The position numbers and the translations under genes were made by a program. Below the pieces are notes generated by a model. The model was given only the letters and a program-made list of their open reading frames with translations, had not been told where the DNA came from and did not search any database. DNA of 64,000 nt from a virus, in IMG/VR virus record IMGVR_UViG_3300026136_000008. One strand, 5' to 3'. Within the stretch, counting starts at the first letter, position 1. Each line of letters opens with the position of its first letter. Positions 20,403 to 47,186 of this stretch are shown here, piece by piece.

Positions 20403-20403
20403 T

Positions 20404-24290: not shown

Positions 24291-24971
24291 TTACGCGTGA
24301 ACTTCGTAAGTCCTCATATTTGGCTTAGAGCCGAACTTGAAAGACGCATCTGAATGATGTTCTTGTCTTGAGCGAGAAGTATCAGCGATACCAACACCCA
24401 TTAACAATACAGTCTTCTTACCTTCAGGAACACCCAGTATTTCGTTAACTTTTTCTACATGGAAACACTTGCAACATCCAGTTGAATAACCCATCATTGT
24501 TGATACAAGGTTTACATAACCTGCAGCAATACCTACTGCCTGGTCACGATCTTCCTTATATGAAAAATGTTCTTTTGAACCACCCATCTTTTCAGACTCA
24601 CTAATATTACGAACTTCTTCGCCATATTGTTTTACATCGTCTTCAACAAATGCATATACTGTATGAGCAGATAGTTGTGAGTTAGTTGGTCCCGTACCTT
24701 CGTCATAACCTTGTAGACCATCAAATCCTAAGAATGAATTGTCTTCACTACCAAACTCAGGAATAGCAGTAGCAGCTTCGATTTGTTCAATCATAGCACG
24801 ATCTGTTATCACGTGGGTTTTATAGTGGTTAAGGTTTTGCTTAGTAGGGCATTGAGTAGCCGCTTCAGTTATCAAGTCGATATCTTCTTGTGGCATTTCC
24901 TTGCTTAAATCCCAGTTGCGATTGCAATGCTGAGATTTATGTATAGATTTTTTAATCATTGATCTAAACAT
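24291..24971 (-). CDS. Nitroreductase-family flavoprotein
   Basis: KSQHCNRNW...AATQCPTKQN, AVGIAAGYVNLVSTMMGYSTG, LLMGVG. Confidence 0.75.
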   Translation of the reverse strand: MFRSMIKKSIHKSQHCNRNWDLSKEMPQEDIDLITEAATQCPTKQNLNHYKTHVITDRAMIEQIEAATAIPEFGSEDNSFLGFDGLQGYDEGTGPTNSQLSAHTVYAFVEDDVKQYGEEVRNISESEKMGGSKEHFSYKEDRDQAVGIAAGYVNLVSTMMGYSTGCCKCFHVEKVNEILGVPEGKKTVLLMGVGIADTSRSRQEHHSDASFKFGSKPNMRTYEVHA

Positions 24972-24990
24972 TTTTTTCTCCTTATGTTAT

Positions 24991-25073
24991 AAAAACGTAA
25001 GATTGCAATCATGAGATTATTCCGGATAGTCCTTCTCCGTTGTTACTGAACGATTTCGAATAATTGCTCTTAC
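24991..25073 (-). ncRNA. Putative structured leader or small RNA of unknown class
   Basis: Nested complementarity GTAAGA/TCTTAC, GCAAT/ATTGC, TATTC/GAATA; starts 5 nt after a TATAAATA and ends in GTTTTT. Confidence 0.45.
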
Positions 25074-25078
25074 AGGTG

Positions 25079-25086
25079 TATTTATA
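25079..25086 (-). promoter_or_regulatory. Late promoter TATAAATA
   Basis: Exact consensus. Confidence 0.75.
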
Positions 25087-25533
25087 CTAATCTTTACTTC
25101 TACGTGCAGCTAATTCAGCCTTCATAGCATCATACTTATCTTTCCTACGCTGATCTACTGCTGCTTGTTCTGCCTTTCTTCTTGCTCTTCGTTGTGCAGC
25201 CCATGGACCGACAACATTAGTAAATATTAAAAATCCGATTACGCCGTATAAAACGGTTTCTGTTAAATTTGCAAACATAAATGCCCTCAGTTGTTCTTCA
25301 TTTCCAGCTTCTATCTCACTTATTTGTGGTTTGTCATCAGGTAATACTGAATCGACTGCTACTGATGTTGCTGCATTCACTGCCGCTGGAATAGGGCCTG
25401 CTACAACGTATGTGGCACCAGTAGTTGCCGCTGTTTTAATTAAATTCTTGGGATCTAATGCGTTGAATCCGCCTAACATACTACATCCACTTATAGAAAG
25501 GGCTAATGTGCCCGCTAATATTTTCTCAATCAT
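25087..25533 (-). CDS. Lipoprotein with a C-terminal TM helix
   Basis: Lipobox LSISGC; TM VLYGVIGFLIFTNVVGPW followed by a basic stretch; own late promoter at 25539-25546. Confidence 0.65.
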   Translation of the reverse strand: MIEKILAGTLALSISGCSMLGGFNALDPKNLIKTAATTGATYVVAGPIPAAVNAATSVAVDSVLPDDKPQISEIEAGNEEQLRAFMFANLTETVLYGVIGFLIFTNVVGPWAAQRRARRKAEQAAVDQRRKDKYDAMKAELAARRSKD

Positions 25534-25537
25534 ACAC

Positions 25538-26524
25538 TTATTTATATGGTTTTAGCGGTGCAATGCCAACTATATGTATTCGCGGTTCAAGTGATGAATT
25601 AATTGCTGTATGTGGTTTAGTAGTATCAAAGTAATATGGATAACCATTATCAGGTACATGGAATAATCTCCACTTATCATCTGTCATAAAAGCCCATTCA
25701 TTTGTTTCTACTACTAAATGTATACGTGGAGTAGGATCAAAATGGAATGTATAACAACCTTTAGGTGGTAGAACCATTAATCTAGTTCTTGTTAAGCCTT
25801 CAGTTTGTATAAACCTTGCAATCTCTGAATCTTCAGGGACGTTAAGCTTATTAAAATCATTTTCAGAAGATCCATCTGGTAACTTATCTATTTGTAATAA
25901 ACCAGTATAGAAGTCTTTACCATCACGTGATTGTAACATAATTTGATTATCATGTAAATCAGGTAAGTCTTTTATTTCTTCACGTATTCTTGTAAGATTA
26001 TATTTACGGTTAATCTTTTTATGTTGCGCTGCATACATGCCAGAATACTTATATAGCTTATCTGATCTTTTCATTTGTTCGCTTGACCTATCATCATCAG
26101 GTAGTATTGTCATTTCCTTTACACGATTTGGATTTAATAATACCCATTCAATAGTATCAAGAACAGATTGAAGTGTCATTTTATTGTCAGATATATCAGC
26201 AACTCTTTCAGTATCTAACCAACCAAAACGTAAAGCTGTGGTATTCATGCCTAAATAGAATAGTTGTTCGTTTGCTTTATCTAATGCAGCTTTCTCAACA
26301 GCGTATACATGCTTCCATTTTTTAAAGCCATCCCCGCTGTTTGAGCTTATGTTAATTGCAGTTTTATTTAAGTCATAAGCTTTATATAACATTTCTACTT
26401 GACTAAATCCATCATGCTTACAATTAATAAACACATCACATTCTTCGAGAGACTCAACTGTATTTAATCTATCGTGAAGGTACTTACCTAACCCTCGTCT
26501 AATCCCCGTTATATAAAACTTCAT
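25538..26524 (-). CDS. Fusion of a minimal SDR-like Rossmann domain and an Asp/Asn beta-hydroxylase-like Fe/2OG domain
   Basis: ITGIRRGLG, NISS, YAVEK (YxxxK); C-terminal HFD...FDTTKPHTAIN...PRIHIV. Confidence 0.75.
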   Translation of the reverse strand: MKFYITGIRRGLGKYLHDRLNTVESLEECDVFINCKHDGFSQVEMLYKAYDLNKTAINISSNSGDGFKKWKHVYAVEKAALDKANEQLFYLGMNTTALRFGWLDTERVADISDNKMTLQSVLDTIEWVLLNPNRVKEMTILPDDDRSSEQMKRSDKLYKYSGMYAAQHKKINRKYNLTRIREEIKDLPDLHDNQIMLQSRDGKDFYTGLLQIDKLPDGSSENDFNKLNVPEDSEIARFIQTEGLTRTRLMVLPPKGCYTFHFDPTPRIHLVVETNEWAFMTDDKWRLFHVPDNGYPYYFDTTKPHTAINSSLEPRIHIVGIAPLKPYK

Positions 26525-28004
26525 TTAAATCGCCATTGTAAAATATGTATTGTTTATTATTAGGATATATAATCTCTAATTTTTCTGGGTGTACTTGCCA
26601 TGATGTAGAATCTTTAATGTCTTCTTGAACACCAAAAATATGAGGAAGTTCTTTTAATAATTTATGAAAAAACAGCGGTGATTTATCACGTGACCAATAA
26701 GCTACTTTATGTTCTTGAAAGTATCCTAATAATTCAAATACGTATTTAAGCTCTTCCCAATCATCTACTTTATCTAATAGTGTTGATCCATCTGTTTTAT
26801 ATTGGTCAAATTCAAAATACCTTGAAAAAATCCTTGCTGCTTTACCATGTTCTTGTACACCACTTGCAAACATCGGTGGTAGTTGTCTATGGTATATTTC
26901 TTTGCCTCTTACATCATGCTTATATCTTTTATGTTTTAGTAATGGACCAAATACAATATTGTATACCCACATCTTATCTAGGTGCAATCCTTTTTCTGAA
27001 TAGTTATCTGCTAATCTATGGTTGTGCCTCTCTTTTTCCATTAATTTAAATGCATTTGCGCACAGCTCAAGTTCTTTATAAGTTAATTTAGGATTTACTT
27101 TTCCTCTCCATATATAAGGTACTACCTTTTCGCCCTTAGGTAAATATCTAATTGGAGGTATTCTATCCCATTCTTCTATAGGTAATTTATTATATTGTGG
27201 ACCACATAAAATTCCATGTATATCTTTTTCAGTCCATGTTCGTGATCTTCTACCTTCAGATCTATAACATGTGATATGAGCAATTAATCTACGTCCACTA
27301 AATATATCGCAATCAGTTACTACATCTTCATAAGCATGATATTTATTTTTATAATGAAGCTGTACTGAATTTGCTATTGTATTTAATTCTAAGCCATCTC
27401 TCCAAACCCTTTGATCTTTCATAGGCTCTTGTATGATAGCATGACGAGCCCCATATGCTTGTTGTATATCTTGAAAATATCTCTGATGTTGTTGCGGTTC
27501 ATATAATAAAACACCTGACCATATTAAACAATCAACTTTATAATCAACTTGATAGGCAACTTCTACATTAGGTGTTGCGTCACTTGCAAATATATCATCT
27601 ATAAATTTATATGTACCAACTTTATATTCTATGCCTGGAAATTCTTCCCACACCTTTTGTGCGTATTCAATAGATTCTGTACTTGTATCAAATCCAAAGT
27701 AACGATAATCCTCGTCGATATAACCTCTCTCATATAATATATCATTTACTGGGCCGTGTCTACAACCAATATCGACTATGGTCTTATGACCAAATTTCAT
27801 TATATAATCTGCTTGAGCTTCGAATATAGGTTTAGCTTCATCACTATCTAAATAATCCATACTATAATGCCTATATTCTTCTTGCAAAGGAACCTTATCG
27901 TACTCACCCTCCGGCAACCTAGGCCAAGGCATTCCATTTACAAAGTGCGGTTCTTTAGTTTCTATTTCAGGAGTATGTTTTTTCCACATGTTCTTTAAAT
28001 TCAT
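26499..28004 (-). CDS. Class I SAM-dependent methyltransferase fused to an unknown domain
   Basis: IVDIGCRHG, YFGFDTS, WSGVLLY. Confidence 0.7.
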   Translation of the reverse strand: MNLKNMWKKHTPEIETKEPHFVNGMPWPRLPEGEYDKVPLQEEYRHYSMDYLDSDEAKPIFEAQADYIMKFGHKTIVDIGCRHGPVNDILYERGYIDEDYRYFGFDTSTESIEYAQKVWEEFPGIEYKVGTYKFIDDIFASDATPNVEVAYQVDYKVDCLIWSGVLLYEPQQHQRYFQDIQQAYGARHAIIQEPMKDQRVWRDGLELNTIANSVQLHYKNKYHAYEDVVTDCDIFSGRRLIAHITCYRSEGRRSRTWTEKDIHGILCGPQYNKLPIEEWDRIPPIRYLPKGEKVVPYIWRGKVNPKLTYKELELCANAFKLMEKERHNHRLADNYSEKGLHLDKMWVYNIVFGPLLKHKRYKHDVRGKEIYHRQLPPMFASGVQEHGKAARIFSRYFEFDQYKTDGSTLLDKVDDWEELKYVFELLGYFQEHKVAYWSRDKSPLFFHKLLKELPHIFGVQEDIKDSTSWQVHPEKLEIIYPNNKQYIFYNGDLNEVLYNGD

Positions 28005-28548
28005 TATATGTTTTATTTATACCTCTCCAGGCAAAGCAAAATATAGCTCGAGGTGCTTCAACCACTTGTACATCATGTAAGTAAGCAGTGTTTAATAATA
28101 CTGGCTTGTCAACCAGTATTTCCCCCATCTGTATTGCTGGATATTTGTCTTGCAACATATTCCAATGAGTCTTGCCATGCCTATATTCTAATTGATGTTG
28201 ATGTGTTTCGTATATGCCAATCTTTGCTTGACCAAACATAGGTAATAATAAATTAAATTGATTGCCTTCTCTCTCATCAAAATCTATATGAGGTGGAACA
28301 CCCGATCTTAAAGTACCATTTAAGTTAAAGCCCGTACCGTGTTCGCACATACCCATATGAGCGTCTGATCCCCATGTTAATAATCTATCCCATTGTCTAT
28401 AATAATCTGGGTTAGATATAAGAACATGTGATTCAGTACCACATTCGATATACTCTAAGGCTGTCTCACCACGAACTTCATTATGCATTCGTATAAGCCA
28501 ATCTTTATCATAATCGACATTAACATATTCAGCTATTCCACTTAGCAT
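27967..28548 (-). CDS. Fe(II)/2OG-type double-stranded beta-helix oxygenase-like protein
   Basis: PPHID...LLNTAYLHDV...PR. Confidence 0.6.
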   Translation of the reverse strand: MLSGIAEYVNVDYDKDWLIRMHNEVRGETALEYIECGTESHVLISNPDYYRQWDRLLTWGSDAHMGMCEHGTGFNLNGTLRSGVPPHIDFDEREGNQFNLLLPMFGQAKIGIYETHQHQLEYRHGKTHWNMLQDKYPAIQMGEILVDKPVLLNTAYLHDVQVVEAPRAIFCFAWRGINKTYNEFKEHVEKTYS

Positions 28549-29164
28549 CCCATTCCTTATATTGTTCTACCCATTTTTGTGGTCTATCTTTCATGTCAGG
28601 TTTTCTTTCTTTCGGTTCATTTAACCAATAATTATTATGGTCAAATATTTCAATACATACATCTTTGACCCATTCATAATTACCTGGCACACATTCTTTC
28701 CAGCCATTGTTCATGCAAAAAGTATCATAAACTATACCACCCATTTTCTCTATTAAATGTCTTGTCATATCAAAATGTCTATGCCCAGCATTTTTTGTTA
28801 CAGGTGTAAATGTTATTACATAGATAGGTTTATTTGAGAATGGTCCATCTTGACCAAGATCAGAATTAAAATGTGTTGAACATATTATCCAATCCATTGC
28901 ATTCTTAAATCCAACAGAATAATGAGCAGTAGCTTCAGGTACTGCAAACACTAATATATCTGCCTCTTTAATAACCTTTAAAAAGTTATGTACACGAGCT
29001 AAGACTTTACCATCAGCACTATTCTTATTACAAATAGGCATATTAAAATCTGTCATGTCATACACGTAATCAAGACCCATTAATCCTAGGCCTCGTGTGT
29101 TCATGGAATTTTCTGCGTAACTAAAGGATATTCCTGTAATTACACTTTTAGTATGCGCCGACAT
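28529..29164 (-). CDS. NAD(P)H-dependent FMN reductase (flavodoxin-like)
   Basis: SFSYAENSMN, ADILVFAVPE, FKNAMDW, NKP. Confidence 0.8.
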   Translation of the reverse strand: MSAHTKSVITGISFSYAENSMNTRGLGLMGLDYVYDMTDFNMPICNKNSADGKVLARVHNFLKVIKEADILVFAVPEATAHYSVGFKNAMDWIICSTHFNSDLGQDGPFSNKPIYVITFTPVTKNAGHRHFDMTRHLIEKMGGIVYDTFCMNNGWKECVPGNYEWVKDVCIEIFDHNNYWLNEPKERKPDMKDRPQKWVEQYKEWDAKWNS

Positions 29165-30068
29165 TTTTAAATTTGTTTTTAAAGCCTTTCATACCTTTTT
29201 TTAATTCTTCATTACTCAACACATTATTATAGAATTCTGGTAATGGCATAATAGTACTATAATCAGTTGCTATTCTCCATAGCTCACGATCTAAATCACT
29301 TATTGCTGTTCGTCTATGTAGTGAGGCAAACTGGTCCATAAGTATTAAGTCGCCCTTTTTAAATATGTGATGATCCATATATTTAGATCTCATTATTTTT
29401 TTATATAATGTATCAACAAATTCATCTCTGTCAATTTGCTTTCTCTTTCCACCTGGTGGTGTATACCATACCTTTCTAATAAAATGATATGAGAAATAGA
29501 TATAGTCTTCATTAGTATGCGGATGCTTACCACACAATGGTCTAATTTGACCACTATGACTATCCATCACTTCTAACTCTGGATCATCATCTTCTATTTC
29601 CATCATAGTATTATTTTTGTATTTAAAATAACAAATAATATTATTATAATAATCTTTCTCTTCTTGTGAAAAATCTTTAAATACATCTCTTGTATTTACA
29701 ATCGATAAAGTAGTATCTTCACATTCCTTGTGACAATATAATCCTATTAGTATTTTTTTAATATCTTTCCTTGAGTTTCCGTTTGAATGCCAACCTAATT
29801 CTTTTTCACCAAACATACCTACTTTCTTTCCATCTATTTTTTTGCCAGTGACAATAAAGATTTCTGGATTCTCTGGAGGATTCATCCAAAGCTTTGGTGT
29901 TTCAGGTTCACCAAACCTTTTCATTACTTCAACATATTCTGACTGAGTAAAGTCTTGCTCATAAAAGAAAACTGGCTTACCGGTTTGAACTTCTTTTGCA
30001 ACTTCTAATAGTTCTTCATTAGAAAAATCTAATAATTTTTTGTCAGAATTTGATGTTTGTGTAGTCAA
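29148..30068 (-). CDS. TauD/TfdA-family dioxygenase
   Basis: LGWHSN, HPHT, GDLILMDQFASLHRR, RELWR; probable TTG start at 30068 after GGAG. Confidence 0.82.
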   Translation of the reverse strand: MTTQTSNSDKKLLDFSNEELLEVAKEVQTGKPVFFYEQDFTQSEYVEVMKRFGEPETPKLWMNPPENPEIFIVTGKKIDGKKVGMFGEKELGWHSNGNSRKDIKKILIGLYCHKECEDTTLSIVNTRDVFKDFSQEEKDYYNNIICYFKYKNNTMMEIEDDDPELEVMDSHSGQIRPLCGKHPHTNEDYIYFSYHFIRKVWYTPPGGKRKQIDRDEFVDTLYKKIMRSKYMDHHIFKKGDLILMDQFASLHRRTAISDLDRELWRIATDYSTIMPLPEFYNNVLSNEELKKGMKGFKNKFKNVGAY

Positions 30069-30912
30069 ATGCAGTTCTCCATAATTGTCTTTCAAGGTAT
30101 TGTATCGGCGATCTCCTATGAATAGTATGCAACTGGTCCATAATTAATAAGTCGCCTCGTCTAAATACATGATGAACCATATATTTTGATTTAAATAATG
30201 TTTGCCATAAATCATCTTTAAAATGTTTAAATTCGTGACCAGTTAATCTTACACCGTTTCGACTAGCACCCACCATAAAAGGCACACAAAAATATAAGTA
30301 TTCTCTACCATCAACTGGATGTACACCTACGAGTGGTCTACGATCAAGATCCTCATGATGATTGTTAGCATTTTTATCTCTATAATGTTTTATACCAGTT
30401 CTAATTTCACCTGATGGTTCCGGATCATCTTCTGAGTCATGTTCAGATATAGCATATATAGCATCATTTACATGGTCAAGATGTATATCAAATTCTCTAA
30501 AATAGTTTTGTCTTTCTTCAGATAATTCAGCAAAGCAATCTACTTGGCTACATATAGAAAGAACTGTATCAATGCATTCCTCAACACAATACAATGATAC
30601 TATTATATCCTCGAACTCGTGCCGTGCCGATCCATTCTGATGCCACTCTAATTCAGTATCACCAAACATTCCAATACGTTTACCTTCCTCATTCCTCTGT
30701 CCAGATACAATACTAATTTCTCTGGCATTTACTGGATTCATAAAGTATTCATTACGATCCATTTTACCGAATCGCTTACATGCTTCAATGTGTTGTTGTT
30801 GTGTTAGATTTTGTTCGTGAAGTACTATGCTACCATCTTGTACTACTTTTAATGCTAAATCTTTTATTTGTTCGTCGCTATAATCTAATATCTGTAATGT
30901 CATCTTGTCCAT
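30043..30912 (-). CDS. TauD/TfdA-family dioxygenase
   Basis: LEWHQN, LVGVHPVDG, GDLLIMDQLHTIHRR, RQLWR. Confidence 0.82.
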   Translation of the reverse strand: MDKMTLQILDYSDEQIKDLALKVVQDGSIVLHEQNLTQQQHIEACKRFGKMDRNEYFMNPVNAREISIVSGQRNEEGKRIGMFGDTELEWHQNGSARHEFEDIIVSLYCVEECIDTVLSICSQVDCFAELSEERQNYFREFDIHLDHVNDAIYAISEHDSEDDPEPSGEIRTGIKHYRDKNANNHHEDLDRRPLVGVHPVDGREYLYFCVPFMVGASRNGVRLTGHEFKHFKDDLWQTLFKSKYMVHHVFRRGDLLIMDQLHTIHRRSPIQYLERQLWRTAFDYTNIKF

Positions 30913-31510
30913 CCAAACTAAACATAAAGGCTATACGTGGTTCTTCACTTTGATTAAATACTCCGTGTGCAAATCCAGTATTAAAGAAATATGCTTTGCC
31001 TGCTTCTAAATGTGTCTCTATAATTTCACCTTTTACCTTAAATCTATTTATCACTTTCTTATTTGTATAAACTGGTATCACAACCCTTGTTGCATAGGTA
31101 GGATCATAATCGATATGCATCGGAACATCAGTATTCCCATCAAGTTTAGTAATACGAATTCTCATCTTATCGCATTTAAATTGATTAGCTATTTCTTCAA
31201 AGTAACTTCCAATAAATTTATCGTTTGGCTTATTATATAATTTCTCTTCGTTTCTTCTCAATCTTTCTTTTATATCATCAGTATATGGTAACTCTTCACC
31301 GTTAAGCTCAGTTAAGTTTATTTGTTTAAAGTTATCGTATACAGATTTACTCAACGCCATATGGTTATCACATAGTGCTTTGTTCGCAGTTTTAACATCA
31401 ACATATTCGGCAGCTAAAACATCTGTTGCTGCTTGAAGCTTGCCAAGATCTATATTGATATGTTTTAATTCACCATGTGTTGGTAACTTATATTTTGTTC
31501 TTGGTTTCAT
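30878..31510 (-). CDS. Asp/Asn beta-hydroxylase-like Fe/2OG oxygenase
   Basis: PMHIDYD...FNTGFAHGVFN...PRIAFMF; start MKPRTK 5 nt after TATAAATA (31516-31523). Confidence 0.75.
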   Translation of the reverse strand: MKPRTKYKLPTHGELKHINIDLGKLQAATDVLAAEYVDVKTANKALCDNHMALSKSVYDNFKQINLTELNGEELPYTDDIKERLRRNEEKLYNKPNDKFIGSYFEEIANQFKCDKMRIRITKLDGNTDVPMHIDYDPTYATRVVIPVYTNKKVINRFKVKGEIIETHLEAGKAYFFNTGFAHGVFNQSEEPRIAFMFSLDGQDDITDIRL

Positions 31511-31526
31511 ATACTTATTTATATGG

Positions 31527-32471
31527 CTATACAACATAGTTATGATGTTTCCTTAAATGCGATTTATACCATTTAGCCGTACGCAATAATCTACGTGGCT
31601 TATCCTTTAATATGTCTGGTCTTCTATGTATACCTATTACATTATCAAATAAACATATGTCGCCTTCCTGCCATTTGTGTTTATATGTGTACTTTTCATT
31701 ACATACATAATCTTCCCATAACTCATAAAATAATTTTTTAGAGTGTTCATACGGTTCACCATCTTTTAAAAATCCGTGTACTTCATACGGGCTAAAGAAT
31801 AAACCTTCAGGGCCGACTGGATGATCAGGTACAAGTTTATGGTTATTCATTATACCACGAGATGCACCAAACTTATGTTTATTCTCAGGCTCCATGTTTA
31901 AACAGTTAACTATCTCACGAGTATTTCTATTCTTATTAATCTCATCAAGAACTTCTTGACCATATATTTTTTTAAATGATGGTTGCCAAGCTTTTTTAAT
32001 AACACCTAATTCCCTTTTAGGATCAAGCACAACAGTAAGTTGTCTCAATAAATCTTTCTTATGTTCATGTAATTGTTTAAAATACGGCAGTGAATTAGCA
32101 AACCAAGTTTCAGTATCATATGTGATTGTCTTTGCGTATAAGCCTATGACTTCCTCAGCATCAGCAACTGGTGTCATATTTGTATGCCAATCTAATTCAT
32201 AGTCACCAAACAATCCTTGGTTCCTATCATCCATCATCTCATTTGTTACAGTCCAGAATAAATCAGAATGTTCCTTATCAGTACACCATATCTCTGGACT
32301 TAAATGATAACCCACACCAAGCGACCACTCAGCATATTCTTCAGGTGTTGCACCGCTATCACGTATAACAACAACTCCAGCATGAGCAACCATTCTTGCT
32401 ATATTATCTGGATCTAAATCTTCTAATGGAATTTCTAAATAAGTTGGTACTACCATAGTGGTGTTAAGCAA
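31527..32471 (-). CDS. TauD/TfdA-family dioxygenase
   Basis: LDWHTN, ETWFAN, HKWQEGDICLFDN..GIHRR, RRLLR. Confidence 0.85.
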   Translation of the reverse strand: MLNTTMVVPTYLEIPLEDLDPDNIARMVAHAGVVVIRDSGATPEEYAEWSLGVGYHLSPEIWCTDKEHSDLFWTVTNEMMDDRNQGLFGDYELDWHTNMTPVADAEEVIGLYAKTITYDTETWFANSLPYFKQLHEHKKDLLRQLTVVLDPKRELGVIKKAWQPSFKKIYGQEVLDEINKNRNTREIVNCLNMEPENKHKFGASRGIMNNHKLVPDHPVGPEGLFFSPYEVHGFLKDGEPYEHSKKLFYELWEDYVCNEKYTYKHKWQEGDICLFDNVIGIHRRPDILKDKPRRLLRTAKWYKSHLRKHHNYVV

Positions 32472-35849: not shown

Positions 35850-35994
35850 TCTTGTAAAATTCCTCTGAGTTATGATTTGCTTTAAATTGTTTTATCCATA
35901 TATTGTTTGCATTATGCGAACTTATAACTCGTGCGGCTTCTAACTGAAGTTCACGTGTATCAAAAGTATTTATAAGCTCTTCTATTGCGTCCAT
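35764..35994 (-). CDS. Hypothetical protein
   Basis: Fills the gap in the operon and overlaps both neighbours. Confidence 0.5.
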   Translation of the reverse strand: MDAIEELINTFDTRELQLEAARVISSHNANNIWIKQFKANHNSEEFYKNVIRWYIIEYGGFPSEVEPGSKIKLLYV

Positions 35995-39054: not shown

Positions 39055-40211
39055 TAACTTAGCCTCTCGCTTAATTCAACATTTAGTTTTGAGCACCGCT
39101 TTGTGCAAACTTTTAATTTAGGCATGACCTCATCGTCATACGAATTAGACCAAGATTTCTCTAAGTCTTCTGTAAAGAATGGATGATTTACTATCTCATC
39201 CCATGTATGATAATTTATATTATTCCAATTCTCGTCATAGTTATCCATAAATCTTTCCCAAGCATGTTTATCACCTGAGTTTAATCTTGTCCAATAGTTA
39301 TAATTAGACTGATGCCAACAACATCTATATACTCCACCATCGTGTGATATTTGCCACATACCATTTTCAGACCATTCACATACTATACCAGATTTTTCTT
39401 TTGCATTATCTAGATTCTGTTCTACACTTAAAGCAGGATTAATCTCAACATCTTGTATGAGTGTCTTCGCTTTTTCTGCCACCTCATCTAAATTACTCTT
39501 AGGTGATAAATTGATTTCTGCATCACGCATATCTTTATAATCTGCATCTTCACCTTTCATAGCTTTAAAGATGGCTAACTTACTTGCTACTTGTTCTATT
39601 CGCTGTACTCTATCTCTATGAAATTCTGCAAACCCATATTCTGTGGCTAACTCTTTTGCTCTTTCTTCTAGTGGTTCATTAAATTCAAATGGAATCATTT
39701 TCCAACATGCAGTACCACCCGCACCTATAAATGCTTTTGCATTTGCAATAATCTTATCAAAGCTAGTATTGATTCTATACATTTCTTGTGTTTCATTATC
39801 GACACCATCTAAATCAAAAAAGATTTTATGACGATCTACACCATCAACAGTAGGTAAATGCTCACTTAATATAGCACCAAGTTTTGCCCACCATTTTGGA
39901 TTACGCATAGATGCATTAGTAGATATAGTAAGCATCTCTATATCTTTCTTTGCTGCGTATTCTATCATCTCTAGAAATTTTGGATGAAGAGGAGAATCAC
40001 CAAATCCACCATCGTATGATATATACTTTAATGGAGAAGCCTCATCAAGTAATTTGTTATGAGCTTCTAATGTCATATTAATATTTTTTGGCGGACCGCC
40101 AATTTCATCTGTAACAGAATTAATTACTTTATGGCGTATACACCCAGGGCATTTTGCCTGGCAATTTGATGTAACCTCTATGGTTAATTGATCTAATCTA
40201 TTATCAAGCAT
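39054..40211 (-). CDS. Radical SAM protein with C-terminal SPASM/twitch domain
   Basis: CQAKCPGC; C...DGGVYRCC...CTKRC. Confidence 0.9.
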   Translation of the reverse strand: MLDNRLDQLTIEVTSNCQAKCPGCIRHKVINSVTDEIGGPPKNINMTLEAHNKLLDEASPLKYISYDGGFGDSPLHPKFLEMIEYAAKKDIEMLTISTNASMRNPKWWAKLGAILSEHLPTVDGVDRHKIFFDLDGVDNETQEMYRINTSFDKIIANAKAFIGAGGTACWKMIPFEFNEPLEERAKELATEYGFAEFHRDRVQRIEQVASKLAIFKAMKGEDADYKDMRDAEINLSPKSNLDEVAEKAKTLIQDVEINPALSVEQNLDNAKEKSGIVCEWSENGMWQISHDGGVYRCCWHQSNYNYWTRLNSGDKHAWERFMDNYDENWNNINYHTWDEIVNHPFFTEDLEKSWSNSYDDEVMPKLKVCTKRCSKLNVELSERLS

Positions 40212-41382
40212 TTACATAATCCCATATTTTAGGAGCCATCTCTTTTGCAGATACATCATATAATTCATCTTGTAGTTTTACTAGTTCTTTAAACTTATAT
40301 GTATCTATTGTTCTTTTACCTGTCAATCTCTTTAAGAATTCTTTTGTAAAATCATTTTCATCTGTATTTGCTAACAAATGAAGCTTGACATCTTCTTCAA
40401 GATTTACAATATCCATAACCTGAGGCCAATGAACAAATGTAGCTCTTATATTTGCAGGTGTATCAATTGAGTCTCTTATATCACACAAGTCTTTATATAT
40501 TTCATTCATATAAAAAGCCTGATATGATGATGTAGTACACACAAATAAAAACTTAGTTACATATGGTGCAATCTCTTTTATATTATTTATAACTGTTTGG
40601 TAATCTCCCCCAGTTCTAAAGTAATTAAACAGATCGCCTGTGCCATCCATAGATACTGTTACATTTACACCTTTAAAATGCGGCCAAAGATCTTTAACAT
40701 TATATCCTTTATATTCTAAGATACTCATATTTGTATTGTATATAAGTTGAATCTTTTTCGTATCAATGTTTGGATCATCTATCATTCTATGTAAGTGTTT
40801 ATACATATCTCGTGTATAGAATGGTTCACCACCAGAAAATTCTATTCCTTCTACTCCACGCGGTATAACATTTTTAAATAAATCATCAATAACTTCAGTA
40901 GCCGGAACAGGAATCTTTTCTTTAGGTGTAGATATATGTGTGAATTGAAAATCCTTTCTTAATTTTGTTTCTATCTCAGGGAATTGTCTACCAGTTAATT
41001 CGAATCTTGAATTAGATGCTGTGTCACAATGTCTACACTGATAGTTACAAGCTCGGGTTGCTTTGATCTGTAAATCTTTTATATAGATATTATCACTATC
41101 ATAATCAGGTTCAGATATATGAGCAATGTCTAGTGATCGTGTTCTATACGAAGATACTCCAGCCTCTTCTTGTATTTTACAATCTATACAACCATTTGGA
41201 AATACACCATTACGAAGTTGCTGACGAACCTTTACAAAGTCACTATTATTAATTACTTCAGAAGGAAGTTTATCACTACCTGATTCTACAAAGTCATGCC
41301 TTTTAAAACGAAAGCATGGAGCATATCCACCTTTCTTGAAGTCTAAATGACCCCAAGCATATTTACATTTTAGCATCCCCAT
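40204..41382 (-). CDS. Radical SAM protein with N-terminal twitch domain
   Basis: CKYAW...PC...CIDC followed by CNYQCRHC, SGGEPF. Confidence 0.92.
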   Translation of the reverse strand: MGMLKCKYAWGHLDFKKGGYAPCFRFKRHDFVESGSDKLPSEVINNSDFVKVRQQLRNGVFPNGCIDCKIQEEAGVSSYRTRSLDIAHISEPDYDSDNIYIKDLQIKATRACNYQCRHCDTASNSRFELTGRQFPEIETKLRKDFQFTHISTPKEKIPVPATEVIDDLFKNVIPRGVEGIEFSGGEPFYTRDMYKHLHRMIDDPNIDTKKIQLIYNTNMSILEYKGYNVKDLWPHFKGVNVTVSMDGTGDLFNYFRTGGDYQTVINNIKEIAPYVTKFLFVCTTSSYQAFYMNEIYKDLCDIRDSIDTPANIRATFVHWPQVMDIVNLEEDVKLHLLANTDENDFTKEFLKRLTGKRTIDTYKFKELVKLQDELYDVSAKEMAPKIWDYVNA

Positions 41383-42608
41383 CCTTCTTCAATAAACTCA
41401 GCAAGCTCAGGATTATAATCTTCTAATTTTGAATCATAATATTTATCTAAAGCAACAATCTTTTCTTTGAATCTTGCCCATCGTTTATGGTTATACTCTT
41501 CTTTTTTAAATAATTTATGTCTTTGACTATCAAGTTTTAACATAGCATCATCTGACATCTCGACTTTACTCCATTCTTCTTCTAACCAATCTAAATATTC
41601 AGCGGGCGCATAATGAGGACAATAGTCACCATCTTTTACTATTAATCTTGACACACTACACTCTGGATAATTCTCAGCAAACCATACTATATCACCAGCT
41701 AATCCATTTAAATTTAATAATGAATATGTTGAATGCACATGATGTTTAACCATTTTATAAATTTTAGAATGATACCATTTATAAATTTCTAATGTCTCTT
41801 TCCAACCAGGAGAACCCCAACGTTGATATGAATTATAATCATTGCACCCATCTAATGAGCAAGTAAGAATAATTTCTTTAAATAAATTTAACTTATCTAT
41901 TATTCGTTCATCGACTTTATTTGTACAATTACTTACAATCTCAAGTCTTAAATTTTCTGGTTTAGCTTCTTCTATTAAATGATCTAATAGTTTTTCAAAA
42001 TTAGGTGAATAAAATGGTTCACCGCCAAGGATTTTAAGATGCTGTAACTCGGACCAATCTACACCAAGAGATTTAATAAATTCAATTCTTTGTTTAGGAA
42101 TCTTTGTAGGTTTTCTACTTCCAAGATTAGTTACTTTATCATTATATACAAATTCTACGTTTATTAGATGTTCATCTCTTCTATATAAATTACTTGAAAA
42201 CATTGAGTCACACATCTTGCATTGAAGATTACATATATTATCAAGGCTAATTTCCATGCCTTTTAAACCAATAAAATTTTCATCTAAATTTTGTAAGTCT
42301 AATCTATAGTCAGTATTAGCTTGTCCTCGCATAGACATAGGTTGCATTTTATCTGGGTAAGATGCTTCATTTAAATAACATTCATTACATTCTTCTATCT
42401 TTTCACCAGCAAGCATCTTTACTCTCATCCATTTAAATGCATCTTCTAAGGTATCATTAGTATTCTCACCGAGTTTTACAGTGCCTCTACCACGCAGACT
42501 AATACCACAGCATGGTCTTAAAGAATTTTCCATTGTTACAGTAGTATGAACCCAAGGATACATGCATACTACACCATTATCTTTACCATCATAATCGTAT
42601 CTACTCAT
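41370..42608 (-). CDS. Radical SAM protein with N-terminal twitch domain
   Basis: CMYPW...PCC...CNEC followed by CNLQCKMC, GGEPF. Confidence 0.92.
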   Translation of the reverse strand: MSRYDYDGKDNGVVCMYPWVHTTVTMENSLRPCCGISLRGRGTVKLGENTNDTLEDAFKWMRVKMLAGEKIEECNECYLNEASYPDKMQPMSMRGQANTDYRLDLQNLDENFIGLKGMEISLDNICNLQCKMCDSMFSSNLYRRDEHLINVEFVYNDKVTNLGSRKPTKIPKQRIEFIKSLGVDWSELQHLKILGGEPFYSPNFEKLLDHLIEEAKPENLRLEIVSNCTNKVDERIIDKLNLFKEIILTCSLDGCNDYNSYQRWGSPGWKETLEIYKWYHSKIYKMVKHHVHSTYSLLNLNGLAGDIVWFAENYPECSVSRLIVKDGDYCPHYAPAEYLDWLEEEWSKVEMSDDAMLKLDSQRHKLFKKEEYNHKRWARFKEKIVALDKYYDSKLEDYNPELAEFIEEGWGC

Positions 42609-43734
42609 TTATTATATCCTCAAATCTGTCATCTAAATCTAATATATTTTGATTTCTAATTTTATCTTGTTTAGCTACAACATGTTTAAAAGCATAATTC
42701 TTTTCTTTGTCAAATTTGCTGGCTTGTAAAATACTAATAGCTTCTTCAGCTTCTAGAGTTTTTCTTCTCCATACTTCACCCGTTTGCTGATGTCTATCAT
42801 CATAATTTTCAATCCATCTTTTTAACCAGGCTATTTGATAATCTTTATATTCATCTGGTATAGCATCAAGATTATATTCTACTGGCCAAAATACAACACC
42901 AAAGAATAATGGAATATTAAATTCCATCAGCTCATCCCACCATGTATCAAGCACTGGCATATTAATAGCAGTAGCAGTTAATTGAATTTGTAAATTCTTA
43001 AAATGCTTTTTATATTTCCATATATTTTGTTTAATTTCATTCCAATTACTTTTATGTCTTTGGTATTCTTGTACAGGGCCTGCGGCATCAACAGATAAAG
43101 TTATTTCAAGTTTGCCAGTAATAGAGTGAAGCTTATTAAACCATTTATCAGATGCGTTAGTTGCATTAGTAGTTATACCAACATACATATCAAGATCTTT
43201 AATATGGTCAATCCACTTTCTTATTTCTAAATCAATAGAAGGTTCACCGCCTAATATCATAAGTTTTTTACAATTAGACAAATCTATATCATAAGCATCT
43301 GAAGTATCTAAGTGCATTACTTCAACTCCCTTTTCTTCTTCAATCAAGCTAGATGCACCTTCCCAACACATGCGACACATTAAATTACATTTATTACCTG
43401 GTCTATAATCGAATCTTACTACTTTGTTTTCACTATTGAAGTCTGCAGGATAACCTTCGTATTTCTGTCTTCTTGATAAAACATTAGGAATATTTCTCTC
43501 TTCGGTATTAGTACACTCAATACATGCCGGATGAATTTCATCTTCATACATTAACTGTTTAAAGTCTTTTAAGTAATCAGAATCCTTATAGTCTGTATAT
43601 GTACCTTTAAAAACATCACCTTTCCATTCACAGCAGGGTTTACATCCTACTGTACCTTCATAAGCTAAGCCTAGCCAGGGTGCTTTACAATATGGTTTAG
43701 TTCGCATCAAACATTTCTCTGTATTGTGGTACAA
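42601..43734 (-). CDS. Radical SAM protein with N-terminal twitch domain
   Basis: CKAPW...PCC...CIEC followed by CNLMCRMC, GGEPS. Confidence 0.92.
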   Translation of the reverse strand: MYHNTEKCLMRTKPYCKAPWLGLAYEGTVGCKPCCEWKGDVFKGTYTDYKDSDYLKDFKQLMYEDEIHPACIECTNTEERNIPNVLSRRQKYEGYPADFNSENKVVRFDYRPGNKCNLMCRMCWEGASSLIEEEKGVEVMHLDTSDAYDIDLSNCKKLMILGGEPSIDLEIRKWIDHIKDLDMYVGITTNATNASDKWFNKLHSITGKLEITLSVDAAGPVQEYQRHKSNWNEIKQNIWKYKKHFKNLQIQLTATAINMPVLDTWWDELMEFNIPLFFGVVFWPVEYNLDAIPDEYKDYQIAWLKRWIENYDDRHQQTGEVWRRKTLEAEEAISILQASKFDKEKNYAFKHVVAKQDKIRNQNILDLDDRFEDIINE

Positions 43735-45034
43735 TATCTCTTATATCTTGACCTCGTATCTCATCTAGTTGATTTGTTATATCAATGAAGCCTTGTAAAT
43801 GATCTTTAGAATAATCTTCTGATTGCATGAATCTTATTGTACTATCTAATACTTGATAGAAATGTTTTTTTACTTTGTCTGAATAGTCAGTACCTTTCAT
43901 CCATTCTTTATACAATTCATAATGATCTTCTACGTCATCTTTCAACATTTGAGGAAGTACTTTAATGTTATAATATTTTGGTGAGTGGCACATATGCTGA
44001 GTTATAGTCGGCCGTAAACCATCAATAGGATTATATCTGTCTAATCCACTCTCTTCTAATTTCCATTTAATAAACTCAGGCATATGATATACATTATATG
44101 GTGTAACAGTAAATGTAAACCAGCATTTTAGATTTACATCACGATTGTCATTTAGCTTTTTCATATGGTTATACACGGAATCCCATTTAGCTGGTGTACG
44201 TTGATAATCAAATACAGCTCCATATCCATCAACAGATGCACCTACACGGATCTGTTTAAACTGTGACCATAACTCCATGTATTTGTTTGTTACATTTGTT
44301 AGATTAGAATTATATTCTATTTCGATATTATGCGCATTACCACCATCAACTAATCGTTGTAAACTCTCTTCGTGTTCTTTAATAATAAGAGGTTCACCGC
44401 CGACAATATAAAGTTTTTTTGCTGTATGTGCATATTTTTCAAAGTTATCCCAGTAAATAGGAGCATCTTTAAACCAATCATATTGATCAGTCGTCCATTT
44501 ACCTGTAGGAGTTTGATGTAGTTCTATACGAGTGTGAGTATCTTTATATGTTGTTGCACCACTTAGTTTAACATAATCAGGATACCACATATGAGAATCT
44601 GTTGGTCCACACATTCTACATTTAAGATTACAGAAATTACCATAACGTATATCAAAGAATTCAATAAGTTGTTTATCTACATCAAGAGTTCCATCCTCCA
44701 TTGTGATTGGAATAGCTGTTTCTTTTTTTATTTCCCAATCGTTATTCTCATATTCTCGACGAGATGGAATACCATTAATCTCTTCTTGTCTACAGCGTTC
44801 ACATTCAGGATGCCATTCATCTTTTAGCATAGCTGCACGAACTTCCTTTAATATGTCAGCGTTCCTTGCCTCATTAAAGTCATCTTTTCCAGCGTTATAT
44901 ATTGTACCATCTTCCTTACGCATTATACCTTTTTTAGGTGAATATGAATTTGTATTACAACAAATCCTCATATCACCATTATTTCTTAGGTTAATAGAGT
45001 TCCAAGGAAGTGGACAGAAGGTATCTTTTTTCAT
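43697..45034 (-). CDS. Radical SAM protein with N-terminal twitch domain
   Basis: CPLPW...ICC...CERC followed by CNLKCRMC, GGEPL. Confidence 0.93.
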   Translation of the reverse strand: MKKDTFCPLPWNSINLRNNGDMRICCNTNSYSPKKGIMRKEDGTIYNAGKDDFNEARNADILKEVRAAMLKDEWHPECERCRQEEINGIPSRREYENNDWEIKKETAIPITMEDGTLDVDKQLIEFFDIRYGNFCNLKCRMCGPTDSHMWYPDYVKLSGATTYKDTHTRIELHQTPTGKWTTDQYDWFKDAPIYWDNFEKYAHTAKKLYIVGGEPLIIKEHEESLQRLVDGGNAHNIEIEYNSNLTNVTNKYMELWSQFKQIRVGASVDGYGAVFDYQRTPAKWDSVYNHMKKLNDNRDVNLKCWFTFTVTPYNVYHMPEFIKWKLEESGLDRYNPIDGLRPTITQHMCHSPKYYNIKVLPQMLKDDVEDHYELYKEWMKGTDYSDKVKKHFYQVLDSTIRFMQSEDYSKDHLQGFIDITNQLDEIRGQDIRDIVPQYREMFDAN

Positions 45035-45073
45035 ATAAATAAACTTATGTTAATCAATTTATTATTATTTATA
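45034..45073. promoter_or_regulatory. Face-to-face late promoters (+ 45034-45041; - 45066-45073)
   Basis: Two exact TATAAATA on opposite strands, each overlapping the start codon of the other strand's gene. Confidence 0.7.
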
Positions 45074-45750
45074 TGAATTATAAGACTACTAAAATAGAAA
45101 TACCAAAGACTGGAAATTTACTTTTGTGGGTATCTGGCGGACTTGATTCAGCATTAGGATTATATACTATAGCTAAACATATTAAAGAAAATAAACTAAA
45201 GAATAAAATTGTTGTAGCTACATGGAAAAGAGACGCAGATGATAATCCTAAAAAGGGTAAACCTGCTAAAGATTGGAATGTTACCCACGCTAAAAAAGTT
45301 ATGACATGGGTTGAAAAAGAATTAAAATTAACAAAGACTCAGAAGTTTCAACATATTATTGTAGATACTCCACCTAAAGATGGTTTAAGAATTGATAACG
45401 ATCAATGGCAGAAAGTATTTGATGATAATAAAAAGAAATACAAATTAAAAGAGTGTTACGGATTTGTTACTAAAAACCCATCTAGACCTGTTATGATAGA
45501 ACATGATTTATATACTGATGATAGACCTGCTTATAGAGATGGTGCAAAAAGATATCATCCTGAAAAACCATTTCAAAATCATGATAAAGCTTGGGTAGCC
45601 CGTTGTTTTGAATCGGAAGGTTTAATGAAAGGTTTATTTCCTTTAACAAGATCTTGTGAAGGCCAGGCAGATGAAACAAAAAACTTTACTAAACCATGTA
45701 AGAAATGTTGGTGGTGTAAAGAGAAATACTGGGCTTTTAAACAGTATTAA
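45073..45750 (+). CDS. QueC-like PP-loop ATPase, paralog of 38155-39054
   Basis: SGGLDS; LTRSCEG...CKKCWWC. Confidence 0.8.
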   Translation: MNYKTTKIEIPKTGNLLLWVSGGLDSALGLYTIAKHIKENKLKNKIVVATWKRDADDNPKKGKPAKDWNVTHAKKVMTWVEKELKLTKTQKFQHIIVDTPPKDGLRIDNDQWQKVFDDNKKKYKLKECYGFVTKNPSRPVMIEHDLYTDDRPAYRDGAKRYHPEKPFQNHDKAWVARCFESEGLMKGLFPLTRSCEGQADETKNFTKPCKKCWWCKEKYWAFKQY

Positions 45751-47173
45751 TTACTAGCGGAAAGTCATTGTTTGGTTTATGATAGTCTTGAAGCCAAGAT
45801 AGTTCTGGGAAGATTGCATTAAAATCTTGTCCTCTTTCTTCTGCAACACGATAACACCATTCAGCAGTCTCAGGTAATCGTACAGACCAATCTTCTGCAT
45901 TCATGAATGAGGCAATACCTTTAAGTCTATCAATAGTATAATTGTTTTCCATGAAAGCTTCTTTTGTTGGTGCACCAGATAATTCCCAGTTCTCTTCTAA
46001 CCATGGATAGAAAGCCTCATACTTTTCAGTAACCTTCTTCTTAAAATCTAATGGCAACGCTTTACAATTTAATTGAGGCGGCCAATATGCCAGATGGTTA
46101 TCAATCATACCTCCACCCTGAGGCCATGTATTTAACAGCTTCCATTTATTTGTTAATTTCCATTTAACGAAATCTGGTATAGACCATATGTTGAGTAGTT
46201 GTATAGTATAAGCTGTTGTAAGCCTAAGGTTTCCATGAGGATAGTTATCTAACTCCCTCATTTTTTCAGTGAGATGGTCGAATGTTGCAGGATATCTTAT
46301 ATAATGCAACCTATCTCCCATATCATCAATAGAGAAATGAAATATAACTTCCTTAAAATGCTTCCATAAATCGAACAAGTTGTCGTCCCACTCCATTCCG
46401 TTTGAGTTATATCTCACTTCAATCTCGCTAGCATAACCATCTTCAATGATTTGCTCTAATAATTCATAATGTTCTTTCATTACAAGTGGTTCACCACCTG
46501 CCCAATACAATTGTTTTAGTTTAGGTATTTGTTCGTATAGTTCATCAAAGAACATAGGATTCTTTTTATGCCATGCATAACTTGCACCTACGAAGGCTAA
46601 CTTACCTGTCTCCTTCTCCCAACGCATTGTTTTTTCTAAATTTTCATTCTTTAATTTAGGATGTATTTTTTTATGTTCTACAATCCAACCCGAAGAATCG
46701 TTCGGTGAACACATAACACAGGCTAACTGACACTTAGACCCAAGGCGAAGATCCACGTATCGGATTTGTGGTGGTACTGAACCAGTCTCTGGATCGTAAC
46801 CTTCTAATACTGACTCTAAACCTAATTTATTAATCCATTTTGTGGTCTCCCACATCCTCTTAGATCTATGTCCTGCATCTTCCTCTTTGTAACACTTAAT
46901 ACAACTATTAGGTTTCTCACCACGCATCATTGCTTTACGTGTACCTCTCATATAAGCATTATTCCATGCTGATTCTAATGATGTATTGGCAAGATTAGAA
47001 GGCATACCATCATCATTCTTTAGAATGCCAATGTCTGATTCTATCTTATCTTGAGAGTCTGGATTCTGAACACCGGAAGCGTTAGCTGTACAACATACGC
47101 GCATGTGTCCGTTTGGTCTTGTTGAGAGGTGTACCCATGGAAGAGCACAAAAAGTTTCACTTGGATAATTCAT
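45737..47173 (-). CDS. Radical SAM protein with N-terminal twitch domain
   Basis: CALPW...VCC...CIKC followed by CQLACVMC, AGGEPL. Confidence 0.93.
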   Translation of the reverse strand: MNYPSETFCALPWVHLSTRPNGHMRVCCTANASGVQNPDSQDKIESDIGILKNDDGMPSNLANTSLESAWNNAYMRGTRKAMMRGEKPNSCIKCYKEEDAGHRSKRMWETTKWINKLGLESVLEGYDPETGSVPPQIRYVDLRLGSKCQLACVMCSPNDSSGWIVEHKKIHPKLKNENLEKTMRWEKETGKLAFVGASYAWHKKNPMFFDELYEQIPKLKQLYWAGGEPLVMKEHYELLEQIIEDGYASEIEVRYNSNGMEWDDNLFDLWKHFKEVIFHFSIDDMGDRLHYIRYPATFDHLTEKMRELDNYPHGNLRLTTAYTIQLLNIWSIPDFVKWKLTNKWKLLNTWPQGGGMIDNHLAYWPPQLNCKALPLDFKKKVTEKYEAFYPWLEENWELSGAPTKEAFMENNYTIDRLKGIASFMNAEDWSVRLPETAEWCYRVAEERGQDFNAIFPELSWLQDYHKPNNDFPLVINTV

Positions 47174-47178: not shown

Positions 47179-47186
47179 TATTTATA
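47179..47186 (-). promoter_or_regulatory. Late promoter TATAAATA
   Basis: Exact consensus 5 nt before the radical SAM ATG. Confidence 0.78.

Follow-up and report, generated by a model that had tools for sequence, protein, structure and literature searches.

The 64,000-nucleotide stretch of viral DNA analysed here (IMG/VR record IMGVR_UViG_3300026136_000008; hereafter the window) comes from a T4-like marine myophage and carries, at 24291-47173, an island of 26 intact genes (~23 kb) that includes eight radical S-adenosylmethionine (SAM) enzymes. We propose, with moderate confidence, that the island encodes one cytoplasmic pathway building or editing an unusual sugar in the form of a nucleotide-sugar or a glycan. 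Its predicted conserved core consists of five radical SAM enzymes with an N-terminal twitch domain (N-twitch), the radical SAM enzyme g17, two further radical SAM enzymes, the methyltransferase-like g13, the pyridoxal phosphate (PLP)-enzyme-like g11 and PP-loop ATPases. Glycan tailoring is favoured, and the tailoring of a ribosomally synthesised and post-translationally modified peptide (RiPP) disfavoured, because in predators and other phages such arrays sit among nucleotide-sugar and glycosyltransferase genes and no RiPP hallmarks accompany them. Genes are numbered g01 to g26 from low to high coordinate; 25 lie on the minus strand and one, g25 (45073-45750), on the plus strand.

A radical SAM array shared by phages and Bdellovibrionota

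Searches of Pfam, NCBIfam and PHROG find eight radical SAM genes in the island (g17, g18, g20-g24 and g26), the number given by an earlier note made from the sequence alone, and family searches likewise bear out its count of three TauD-family oxygenases, a desaturase, a flavin mononucleotide (FMN) reductase and a nitroreductase. Five of the eight belong to the NCBIfam family NF033640 (N_Twi_rSAM, twitch domain-containing radical SAM protein), which has a curated cut-off of 170 bits: g26 (45737-47173; 391.5 bits), g24 (43697-45034; 363.3 bits), g21 (40204-41382; 206.3 bits), g22 (41370-42608; 197.8 bits) and g23 (42601-43734; 182.1 bits). g17 (38.1 bits) and g18 (58.7 bits) fall below this cut-off and g20 has no match, and none of the three is a member. 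g21-g24 and g26 each carry an N-terminal four-cysteine auxiliary (twitch) cluster and an intact CxxxCxxC / GGE core; across 53 sequences, including all five paralogues, C9, C27, C91, C94, C148, C152, C155 and G226-G227-E228 are invariant. The five share 19-29% mutual identity and appear to be old paralogues. The most conserved of them is g26, which is 93-99% identical in related phages and ~50% in Bdellovibrionota; g24 has homologues of 35-43% identity in Bdellovibrionota, next to a g11-like gene; g21, g22 and g23 share 19-25% mutual identity and reach only 49-60% in a collinear relative, G002.

The remaining radical SAM enzymes are of other types. g17 (35982-37115; motifs CNYxCSYC and GGEP) is BlsE/viperin/MoaA-like, with a C-terminal cluster of invariant cysteines (C307, C329, C350 and C355), and is 56-64% identical in Bdellovibrionota. 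g18 (37106-38155; PF04055), a core member, is 41-44% identical in Bdellovibrionota, where it adjoins g17 and g26 homologues, and g20 (39054-40211; PF04055) is its 26% paralogue. The AlphaFold2 model of g17 (pLDDT 88.4) has BlsE as its best structural match (PDB 7vob; Z 17.4, rmsd 3.9 A, 275 residues), followed by EpeE, SkfB, PqqE, viperin and MoaA at Z 15.4-16.0. This predicted likeness to BlsE is a substrate lead for g17, not an assignment or a membership. The model of g26 (pLDDT 90.7) matches only the generic radical SAM core in fold searches, with a TM of ~0.3. Sequence searches of the PDB with g26, g17, g25, g15 and a 440-residue neighbour gave marginal or zero matches.

All 26 genes are collinear in two phage contigs from IMG/VR, G001 and G002. 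Amino acid identities to G001 run from 55 to 100%, with 20 of the 26 genes at 90% or above and most at 92-100%; the exceptions are g19 (79%) and g08, which is 55% identical though the adjacent genes are at 92-94%. Identities to G002 run from 38 to 93%: the flanking genes g26, g24, g17, g18 and g11 stand at 85-93%, and the interior genes g19 (38%), g04, g22, g23, g07 and g20 at 38-60%. The flanks are also the same, with tail fibres on one side in both contigs and a CHASE2 cyclase on the other side in G002 (G001 ends before that flank). Because g08 and g19 are outliers in G001 and the interior is of low identity in G002, it appears that single tailoring genes are exchanged, or diverge fast, within a stable frame.

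The system recurs beyond these close relatives. In other large phage contigs the same core is embedded in arrays with as many as 13 radical SAM genes, and marine metagenomes yield over 3,900 homologues of the g26 type, all unnamed, with Atlas clusters that are 88-100% viral. Among cultured phages, only the Ralstonia jumbo phage RsoM2USA has a family member, a distant one (gene 349, 25% identical); a g13-like methyltransferase, gene 347, lies two genes away (L102, 209363-226529), and all the neighbours are annotated as hypothetical. By sequence, RsoM2USA appears to carry a minimal set of one N-twitch radical SAM enzyme and one g13-like methyltransferase. In another viral contig (G004), a 4,641-residue open reading frame (ORF; L023:67-13992) is found upstream of a more distant radical SAM core, and it may encode a VrlC-like giant structural protein.

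Outside phages, the family belongs largely to predatory bacteria. A scan of one genome per prokaryotic species found 74 loci, the large majority in Bdellovibrionota (Bdellovibrionales, Bacteriovoracaceae, Halobacteriovoraceae and Oligoflexia). The family is present in 26 of the 121 sampled Bdellovibrionota genomes, several of which have 7-11 copies, and none of 14 control genomes has a match above the NF033640 cut-off. A separate search found ~17 N-twitch copies in two tandem arrays in one 1.9-Mb Bdellovibrionales genome (G010, OZ220490.1, locus L054), an extreme expansion for its size. Two small ORFs in a gap of the L054 array were considered as precursors and rejected, as they have no family and are not precursor-like.

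In the Bdellovibrionota loci the g26 homologue is clustered with homologues of g17, g18, g24, g13 and g11 and with tandem g25-like PP-loop homologues; at four or more predator loci, g11 homologues are direct neighbours of g24-like genes. Homologues of g01, g03, g07, g09 and g12 join the core in loci L037 and L093, and both halves of the island would therefore belong together. The top matches in non-predator metagenome-assembled genomes (52-62% identity) were rejected as cellular occurrences and left out of the counts: they look like mis-binned phage contigs, and two of them fall inside a phage clade of the g17 tree. In this tree two phage clades are supported and separate from those of the predators; the backbone is unresolved, and therefore we claim no direction of transfer. 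In the literature we found no paper linking Bdellovibrio with the N-twitch radical SAM family. Considering that the island is collinear in two phage contigs and that its core recurs together in Bdellovibrionota chromosomes, the sequences support one coherent system rather than loose auxiliary genes, as the earlier note had held.

Sugar context and the competing explanations

The neighbours of the array in other genomes point to sugar chemistry. On a complete Bacteriovoracaceae chromosome (L038), the cluster adjoins two glycosyltransferases of family 2 (GT2), a PMT_2 transferase (GT-C), a short-chain dehydrogenase/reductase (SDR) and a flavin amine oxidase. On the Bdellovibrionales chromosome of L054, seven N-twitch genes and a g17-like gene adjoin an asparagine synthase, a GT2, a UDP-sugar dehydrogenase and a PMT_2. 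A tally of 148 non-redundant neighbours at 17 predator loci is headed by GT2 (5), NAD-dependent epimerase/dehydratase (4), carbamoyltransferase (3), UDP-glucose/GDP-mannose dehydrogenase (3) and GDP-Man-dehydratase-like proteins (3), with Asp_Arg_Hydrox (3), DegT (2) and RmlD (2) as further common families. The corresponding phage tally of 106 proteins (99 neighbours from ten phage loci and seven of the island's own) contains UDP-sugar dehydrogenase (2), Asp_Arg_Hydrox (2), carbamoyltransferase, epimerase, DegT, RmlD and GFO_IDH_MocA, and it also holds tail-collar and S74 fibre domains. RiPP hallmarks are absent from the 25 commonest families of either tally. Uronic-acid-forming UDP-sugar dehydrogenases recur beside g17 homologues.

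We propose that the pathway may work as follows. Each radical SAM enzyme would abstract a hydrogen from a sugar carbon in an oxygen-independent step, which could be an oxidation, epimerisation, decarboxylation, deoxygenation or carbon-carbon or C-methyl chemistry; for g17, decarboxylation is possible by analogy with BlsE, which acts on a uronic acid. The PP-loop ATPases may amidate or ligate carboxylates, and the iron- and 2-oxoglutarate-dependent (Fe/2OG) oxygenases, the desaturase-like enzyme, the flavin reductases, the methyltransferases and the PLP enzyme would add further decorations. The GT8-like g15 would then attach the product to an acceptor in the cytoplasm. The product probably differs from strain to strain, as surface glycans do, since near-identical phages appear to have exchanged single tailoring genes.

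All island proteins are predicted to be soluble except the desaturase-like g12 and the lipoprotein g02, and no flippase, GT-C enzyme, polymerase or polytopic membrane protein is found among the 26. This means that the target would be cytoplasmic (virion proteins or, less likely, DNA), or that the sugar would be fed into envelope pathways of the host. Given a glycan pathway, a virion protein is our first guess, if a tentative one, because flippase, GT-C enzyme and polymerase are lacking and because the island is apparently co-transcribed with the fibre genes; a host envelope glycan, made via host machinery, comes next. The adjacency to fibres and the late-type promoters slightly favour a virion target, and the GT-C partners in predators, together with the published suggestion for pelagimyophages (PMC7029224), favour an envelope glycan. 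In its most extended form, the proposal says that the phage array makes a strain-variable, heavily edited glycan, that the cytoplasmic GT8-like transferase attaches it to tail fibres or further virion proteins late in infection, and that Bdellovibrio-type predators use the same set for their attack surface; as a whole this is doubtful.

Several points weigh against a sugar pathway. The sugar context comes from relatives and predators and is guilt by association; family searches recognise no nucleotidyltransferase, UDP-sugar dehydrogenase, epimerase/dehydratase or DegT protein in the island itself. The glycosyltransferase, PLP and methyltransferase assignments are weak: the earlier note had listed these classes and an SDR, and all four are weak here, the SDR resting on a motif only. 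To our knowledge NF033640 is a sequence model only, without any member of known substrate or reaction. In the fold search with g26, BlsE, anSME, CteB and viperin are tied at Z 11-12, which gives no substrate information, and for g17 the lead of BlsE is only ~1.4 Z, with the peptide-modifying EpeE, SkfB and PqqE close behind. Finally, a lipid target would be just as good a fit for the desaturase, the LpxO-like hydroxylases and the lipoprotein.

The first competing explanation is direct modification of proteins or peptides in a RiPP-like manner, in which the substrate of the radical SAM enzymes, Fe/2OG hydroxylases and methyltransferases would be side chains of a phage protein such as a fibre, capsid protein or curlin, or an unrecognised precursor, as in proteusins. 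Most characterised SPASM/twitch radical SAM enzymes do act on peptides; SkfB, CteB, EpeE, anSME and SuiB score about equal to sugar- and nucleotide-acting enzymes in fold searches; Asp_Arg_Hydrox is a protein-hydroxylase family; and the island adjoins fibre genes and has late-promoter motifs. However, the gaps within the island total less than 200 nt and leave no room for a precursor gene, and Pfam and NCBIfam searches of the 26 proteins find no match to a RiPP recognition element (RRE/PqqD), leader protease, cyclodehydratase or exporter. The small proteins are also poor candidates, as g16 has no cysteine and is conserved end to end, and a 51-residue ORF after the terminator is Lys/Arg-rich and not core-like. 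Moreover, the N-terminal position at which a RiPP maturase carries its recognition element is taken by the auxiliary cluster domain, and sugar enzymes dominate the tallies of predator and phage neighbours. We therefore consider this explanation unlikely. The earlier note had left RiPP-like and glycan tailoring side by side; the glycan half fits the nucleotide-sugar and glycosyltransferase neighbourhoods, and the RiPP half is left with neither room for a precursor nor an RRE, protease or exporter. Its statement that non-ribosomal peptide and polyketide synthases, DpdA, QueD and a precursor-like gene are lacking agrees with every family search of the island.

A second explanation is remodelling of the envelope lipid or of a small molecule: the desaturase, LpxO-like hydroxylases, TauD enzymes, flavin reductases and lipoprotein would change the membrane lipids or lipid A of the host, or produce a diffusible metabolite, and acyl chains or head groups would be the substrates of the radical SAM enzymes. 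PF05118, the Asp_Arg_Hydrox family, includes the lipid A hydroxylase LpxO; g12 is an FA_desaturase, the lipoprotein g02 has a promoter motif of its own, ScoE, whose substrate is a fatty-acid derivative, is among the distant TauD matches, and the PMT_2 neighbours in predators could be ArnT-like lipid A transferases. An alteration of the host surface that blocks co-infection was also proposed by the authors of the pelagimyophage study (PMC7029224). Against this, the neighbour tallies show no recurrent acyl carrier, acyltransferase or lipid A gene, the conserved core is made of soluble enzymes, and for superinfection exclusion one would expect early promoters, not the late pattern seen here, which makes this explanation quite unlikely.

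Third, the island could be a hot spot of unrelated auxiliary genes, in which a host-recognition cluster tolerates insertions and each gene has its own role in host metabolism. Indeed, the hypervariable region around the fibres of pelagimyophages and cyanomyophages collects accessory genes (PMC7029224), multiple 2OG oxygenases are common in cyanomyophages (PMC3037559), and the cultured pelagimyophage HTVC008M and the Melnitz phages are without radical SAM genes. This is very unlikely, given that 26 of 26 genes are collinear in the two relatives, that genes from both halves co-occur in Bdellovibrionota chromosomes, and that overlapping genes have terminators and promoter motifs in common. The least probable explanation is a modified base or sugar for the phage DNA, in the style of deazaguanine or glycosylated hydroxymethylcytosine: T4-like phages glycosylate their own DNA, the two PP-loop ATPases have a weak QueC-like PHROG match, and viperin and MoaA, structural neighbours of g17, act on nucleotides, but the island has no DpdA, QueD or FolE match, QueE models reach 15-17 bits against cut-offs above 200, periplasm-facing GT-C transferases adjoin the family in predators, g15 is GT8-like rather than a T4-type DNA glucosyltransferase, and the promoter pattern is late.

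We thus return to a pathway that builds or edits a sugar. An uncharacterised enzyme family takes up ~23 kb in a streamlined phage genome and as many as ~17 genes in a 1.9-Mb predator genome. If its members edit sugars, they would bring new radical chemistry to glycobiology; if the extended proposal is also true, a new class of radical glycan-editing chemistry would be common to two kinds of bacterial killers. This could help to explain how abundant ocean phages and predators vary surfaces, their own or those of their hosts, and would bear on host range and superinfection in SAR11-type systems. RsoM2USA from Ralstonia and family-bearing Bdellovibrio isolates provide culturable entry points.

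Promoter motifs, tailoring genes and flanks of the island

The ORF map confirms the tight packing, the overlaps and the adjacency to fibre genes on which the earlier note had remarked: most island genes overlap a neighbour, the sole gaps being 115, 38 and 45 nt, and tail-fibre genes at 47219-49510 and 49528-53745 adjoin the island. An intrinsic terminator on the minus strand (24264-24283; an 8-bp stem with 5 GC pairs, then a T-run) ends the minus-strand unit after g01. At the other end, a hairpin on the minus strand (47185-47206) follows the tail-fibre gene and precedes g26, and the late-promoter motif TATAAATA at 47179 lies 5 nt before the g26 ATG. Between g24 and g25 there is a divergent pair of TATAAATA motifs (45034-45073), each 31 nt before its own gene (g25 on the plus strand, g24 on the minus strand).

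The four exact TATAAATA sites listed previously, at 47179, 45066, 45034 and 31516, are all present, and further ones lie at 25079, 25539, 28014, 35967, 37216 and 40584. The motif precedes g26, g24, g25, g04, g02 and g01, is found at the 5' end within g09 and g16, and also occurs inside g18 and g21. In the window it is counted 25 times against 12.05 +/- 3.7 expected, a number reached by 0 of 100 shuffles. Most genes are on the minus strand, as are 22 of the 25 motifs, and the three plus-strand sites each precede plus-strand genes. Sites of sigma-70 type show no enrichment (40 found where 63.5 are expected, and 50 where 59 are expected). The enrichment of late-promoter motifs is thus real, and the step from TATAAATA to timing during morphogenesis is less firm than had been stated. 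In marine T4-like phages without MotA/AsiA, middle genes are reportedly driven by combined early and late promoters (PMC2984593), and for this reason TATAAATA does not prove expression during morphogenesis.

The spacing of these motifs is a separate observation. Exactly 5 nt after 5 of the 25 TATAAATA motifs (motif positions 22259, 24253, 25546, 31523 and 47186) stands the ATG of a long ORF: the cyclase (at an internal start), the 51-residue ORF, g02, g09 (internal ATG 31510) and g26. For g04 the gap between motif and start is 9 nt. The 5-nt spacing suggests leaderless late mRNAs, or start codons that have been wrongly set.

Among the tailoring genes, the clearest assignments are to oxidoreductases. 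g01 (24291-24971) is a nitroreductase-family flavoenzyme (PF00881, E 3.2e-13) and g06 (28529-29164) an NADPH-dependent FMN reductase (PF03358, E 8.7e-14), both above the Pfam cut-off; g01 homologues (39-43%) adjoin N-twitch genes in loci L028 and L093. The three TauD-family Fe/2OG oxygenases (PF02668) are g07 (29148-30095, E 4e-19), g08 (30043-30912, E 9e-21) and g10 (31527-32471, E 3e-25). Three other Fe/2OG domains had been expected and two are found: the Asp_Arg_Hydrox/LpxO-like g09 (30878-31537; PF05118, E 1.6e-7) and the C-terminal half of g03 (25538-26524), a weak match to the same family (E 7e-4). The N-terminal part of g03 has a TGxxxGxG-like, Rossmann-like motif, and homologues of this gene occur in predator loci L037, L050 and L093. 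g12 (33256-33900) is a membrane di-iron enzyme of fatty-acid-desaturase type (PF00487, E 3.3e-8, above the Pfam cut-off), with homologues beside N-twitch genes in L037 and L093.

The core members outside the radical SAM family are more difficult to assign. g11 (32450-33274) is a short protein resembling fold-type-I PLP enzymes, a weak assignment (E 0.004); it aligns with homologues of ~300 residues in which D144 and S168-x-x-K171, typical of these enzymes, are invariant, and a profile of it matches PDB aminotransferases at E 0.003-0.01. g13 (33891-34631) resembles class-I SAM methyltransferases, with the motifs GGWxG, DxD and NTSCEH invariant across 15 phage and predator homologues; its profile has no useful match in the PDB. 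The two ATPases formerly read as QueC-like are g19 (38155-39054; SGGMDS motif, with weak ATP_bind_3, Asn-synthase and TilS matches) and its 26% paralogue g25 (SGGxDS). Both hold as PP-loop proteins with the SGGxDS signature, but the QueC likeness is weak and lies in C-terminal matches to phrog_1550 (E 1e-5 and, for g25, 1e-4). Tandem homologues of g25 are found beside radical SAM genes in predator loci L039 and L062.

g15 (35046-35849) is a predicted GT8-like (GT-A) glycosyltransferase, soluble and without a transmembrane segment (phrog_1962, E 2e-4); its neighbours in the language-model Atlas are viral GT8 or nucleotide-diphospho-sugar transferases at 0.95-0.96, and it has no Pfam match and no PDB sequence match. 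g16 (35764-35994), a 76-residue protein without cysteine or family, is conserved over its full length and is 40-50% identical in five divergent phage contigs, where it always adjoins the radical SAM core. g02 (25087-25533) is a lipoprotein by its N-terminal sequence (lipobox ...SISGC; phrog_19883, E 2.4e-19), with a homologue (49%) where the radical SAM block of phage contig L027 ends. g04 (26499-28004, 501 residues) has a weak methyltransferase match (PF13489, E 1.4e-3). g05 (within 25538-28548) and g14 (34622-35119) have no family match; g14 is 77-97% identical in G002 and G001.

Among the structural genes of the phage, strong PHROG matches identify a portal (2928-4439), a tail sheath (5060-6733) and a large terminase (6802-8370). 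Identity of the portal to any cultured phage does not exceed 52%, cyanomyophages coming nearest, and a nucleotide search of the island against cultured phages gave zero matches. A curli-type operon on the plus strand (17319-24113) encodes a CsgG-like protein and curlin-repeat proteins, with a CHASE2-adenylate/guanylate cyclase last (PF05226, E 1e-37; PF00211, E 2.7e-18); this cyclase is 91% conserved in G002 at the same island flank. The CsgG-like protein is 62.7% identical to CsgG of Pelagibacter phage HTVC008M, and the source phage therefore appears to be pelagimyophage-like, that is, related to the SAR11 phages. Directly after the island terminator, the 51-residue Lys/Arg-rich ORF (24088-24240, minus strand) has its own TATAAATA; it is 71-75% conserved at the same place in G001 and G002, and its end overlaps the convergent cyclase gene.

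Comparison with known systems

Virus-encoded glycosylation of virions is a parallel for a virion target. The glycan pathways of chloroviruses and mimivirus, and the capsid and tail glycosylation of mycobacteriophages, use virus-encoded sugar-modifying enzymes and cytoplasmic glycosyltransferases that are expressed with structural genes. The island would be alike in having its own sugar-modifying enzymes and a cytoplasmic glycosyltransferase, both predicted. We know of no radical SAM arrays in such systems, nor of a glycosylated virion protein shown for this phage group. Proteusin RiPP pathways offer a similar mix of enzyme classes, as they combine a radical SAM epimerase and C-methyltransferases with an Fe/2OG hydroxylase and an N-methyltransferase; they are defined by a leader-bearing precursor, which the island does not have. 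The gtrABC seroconversion cassettes are phage genes that change the surface glycan of the host through a flippase, a bactoprenol GT2 and a GT-C enzyme. The island differs from them in its late-type promoter pattern and in having no polytopic membrane protein; a role in host glycans would be of the kind proposed for pelagimyophage glycosyltransferases (PMC7029224).

At the level of single enzymes, BlsE, a radical SAM decarboxylase of cytosylglucuronic acid, shares a C-terminal auxiliary cluster with g17 at a sequence identity of 13%. With regard to NF033640, the island places five members in one array together with three radical SAM enzymes of other types.

A genomic counterpart is the host recognition cluster of pelagimyophages, a hypervariable block where tail fibres and glycosyltransferases accompany 'radical SAM cassettes' (Zaragoza-Solas et al. 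2020, PMC7029224); 12 radical SAM genes have also been noted in an environmental genome of T4-like type (Nishimura et al. 2017, PMC5332604). The island resembles this cluster as a variable block in the structural module that combines fibres and accessory enzymes in a curli-encoding T4-like phage, whereas cultured pelagimyophages are without the radical SAM array. The two studies note such genes as cassettes or Fe-S proteins, without a function, a family, a conserved core or the link to predators. The window adds a well-delimited member of this recurring phage system.

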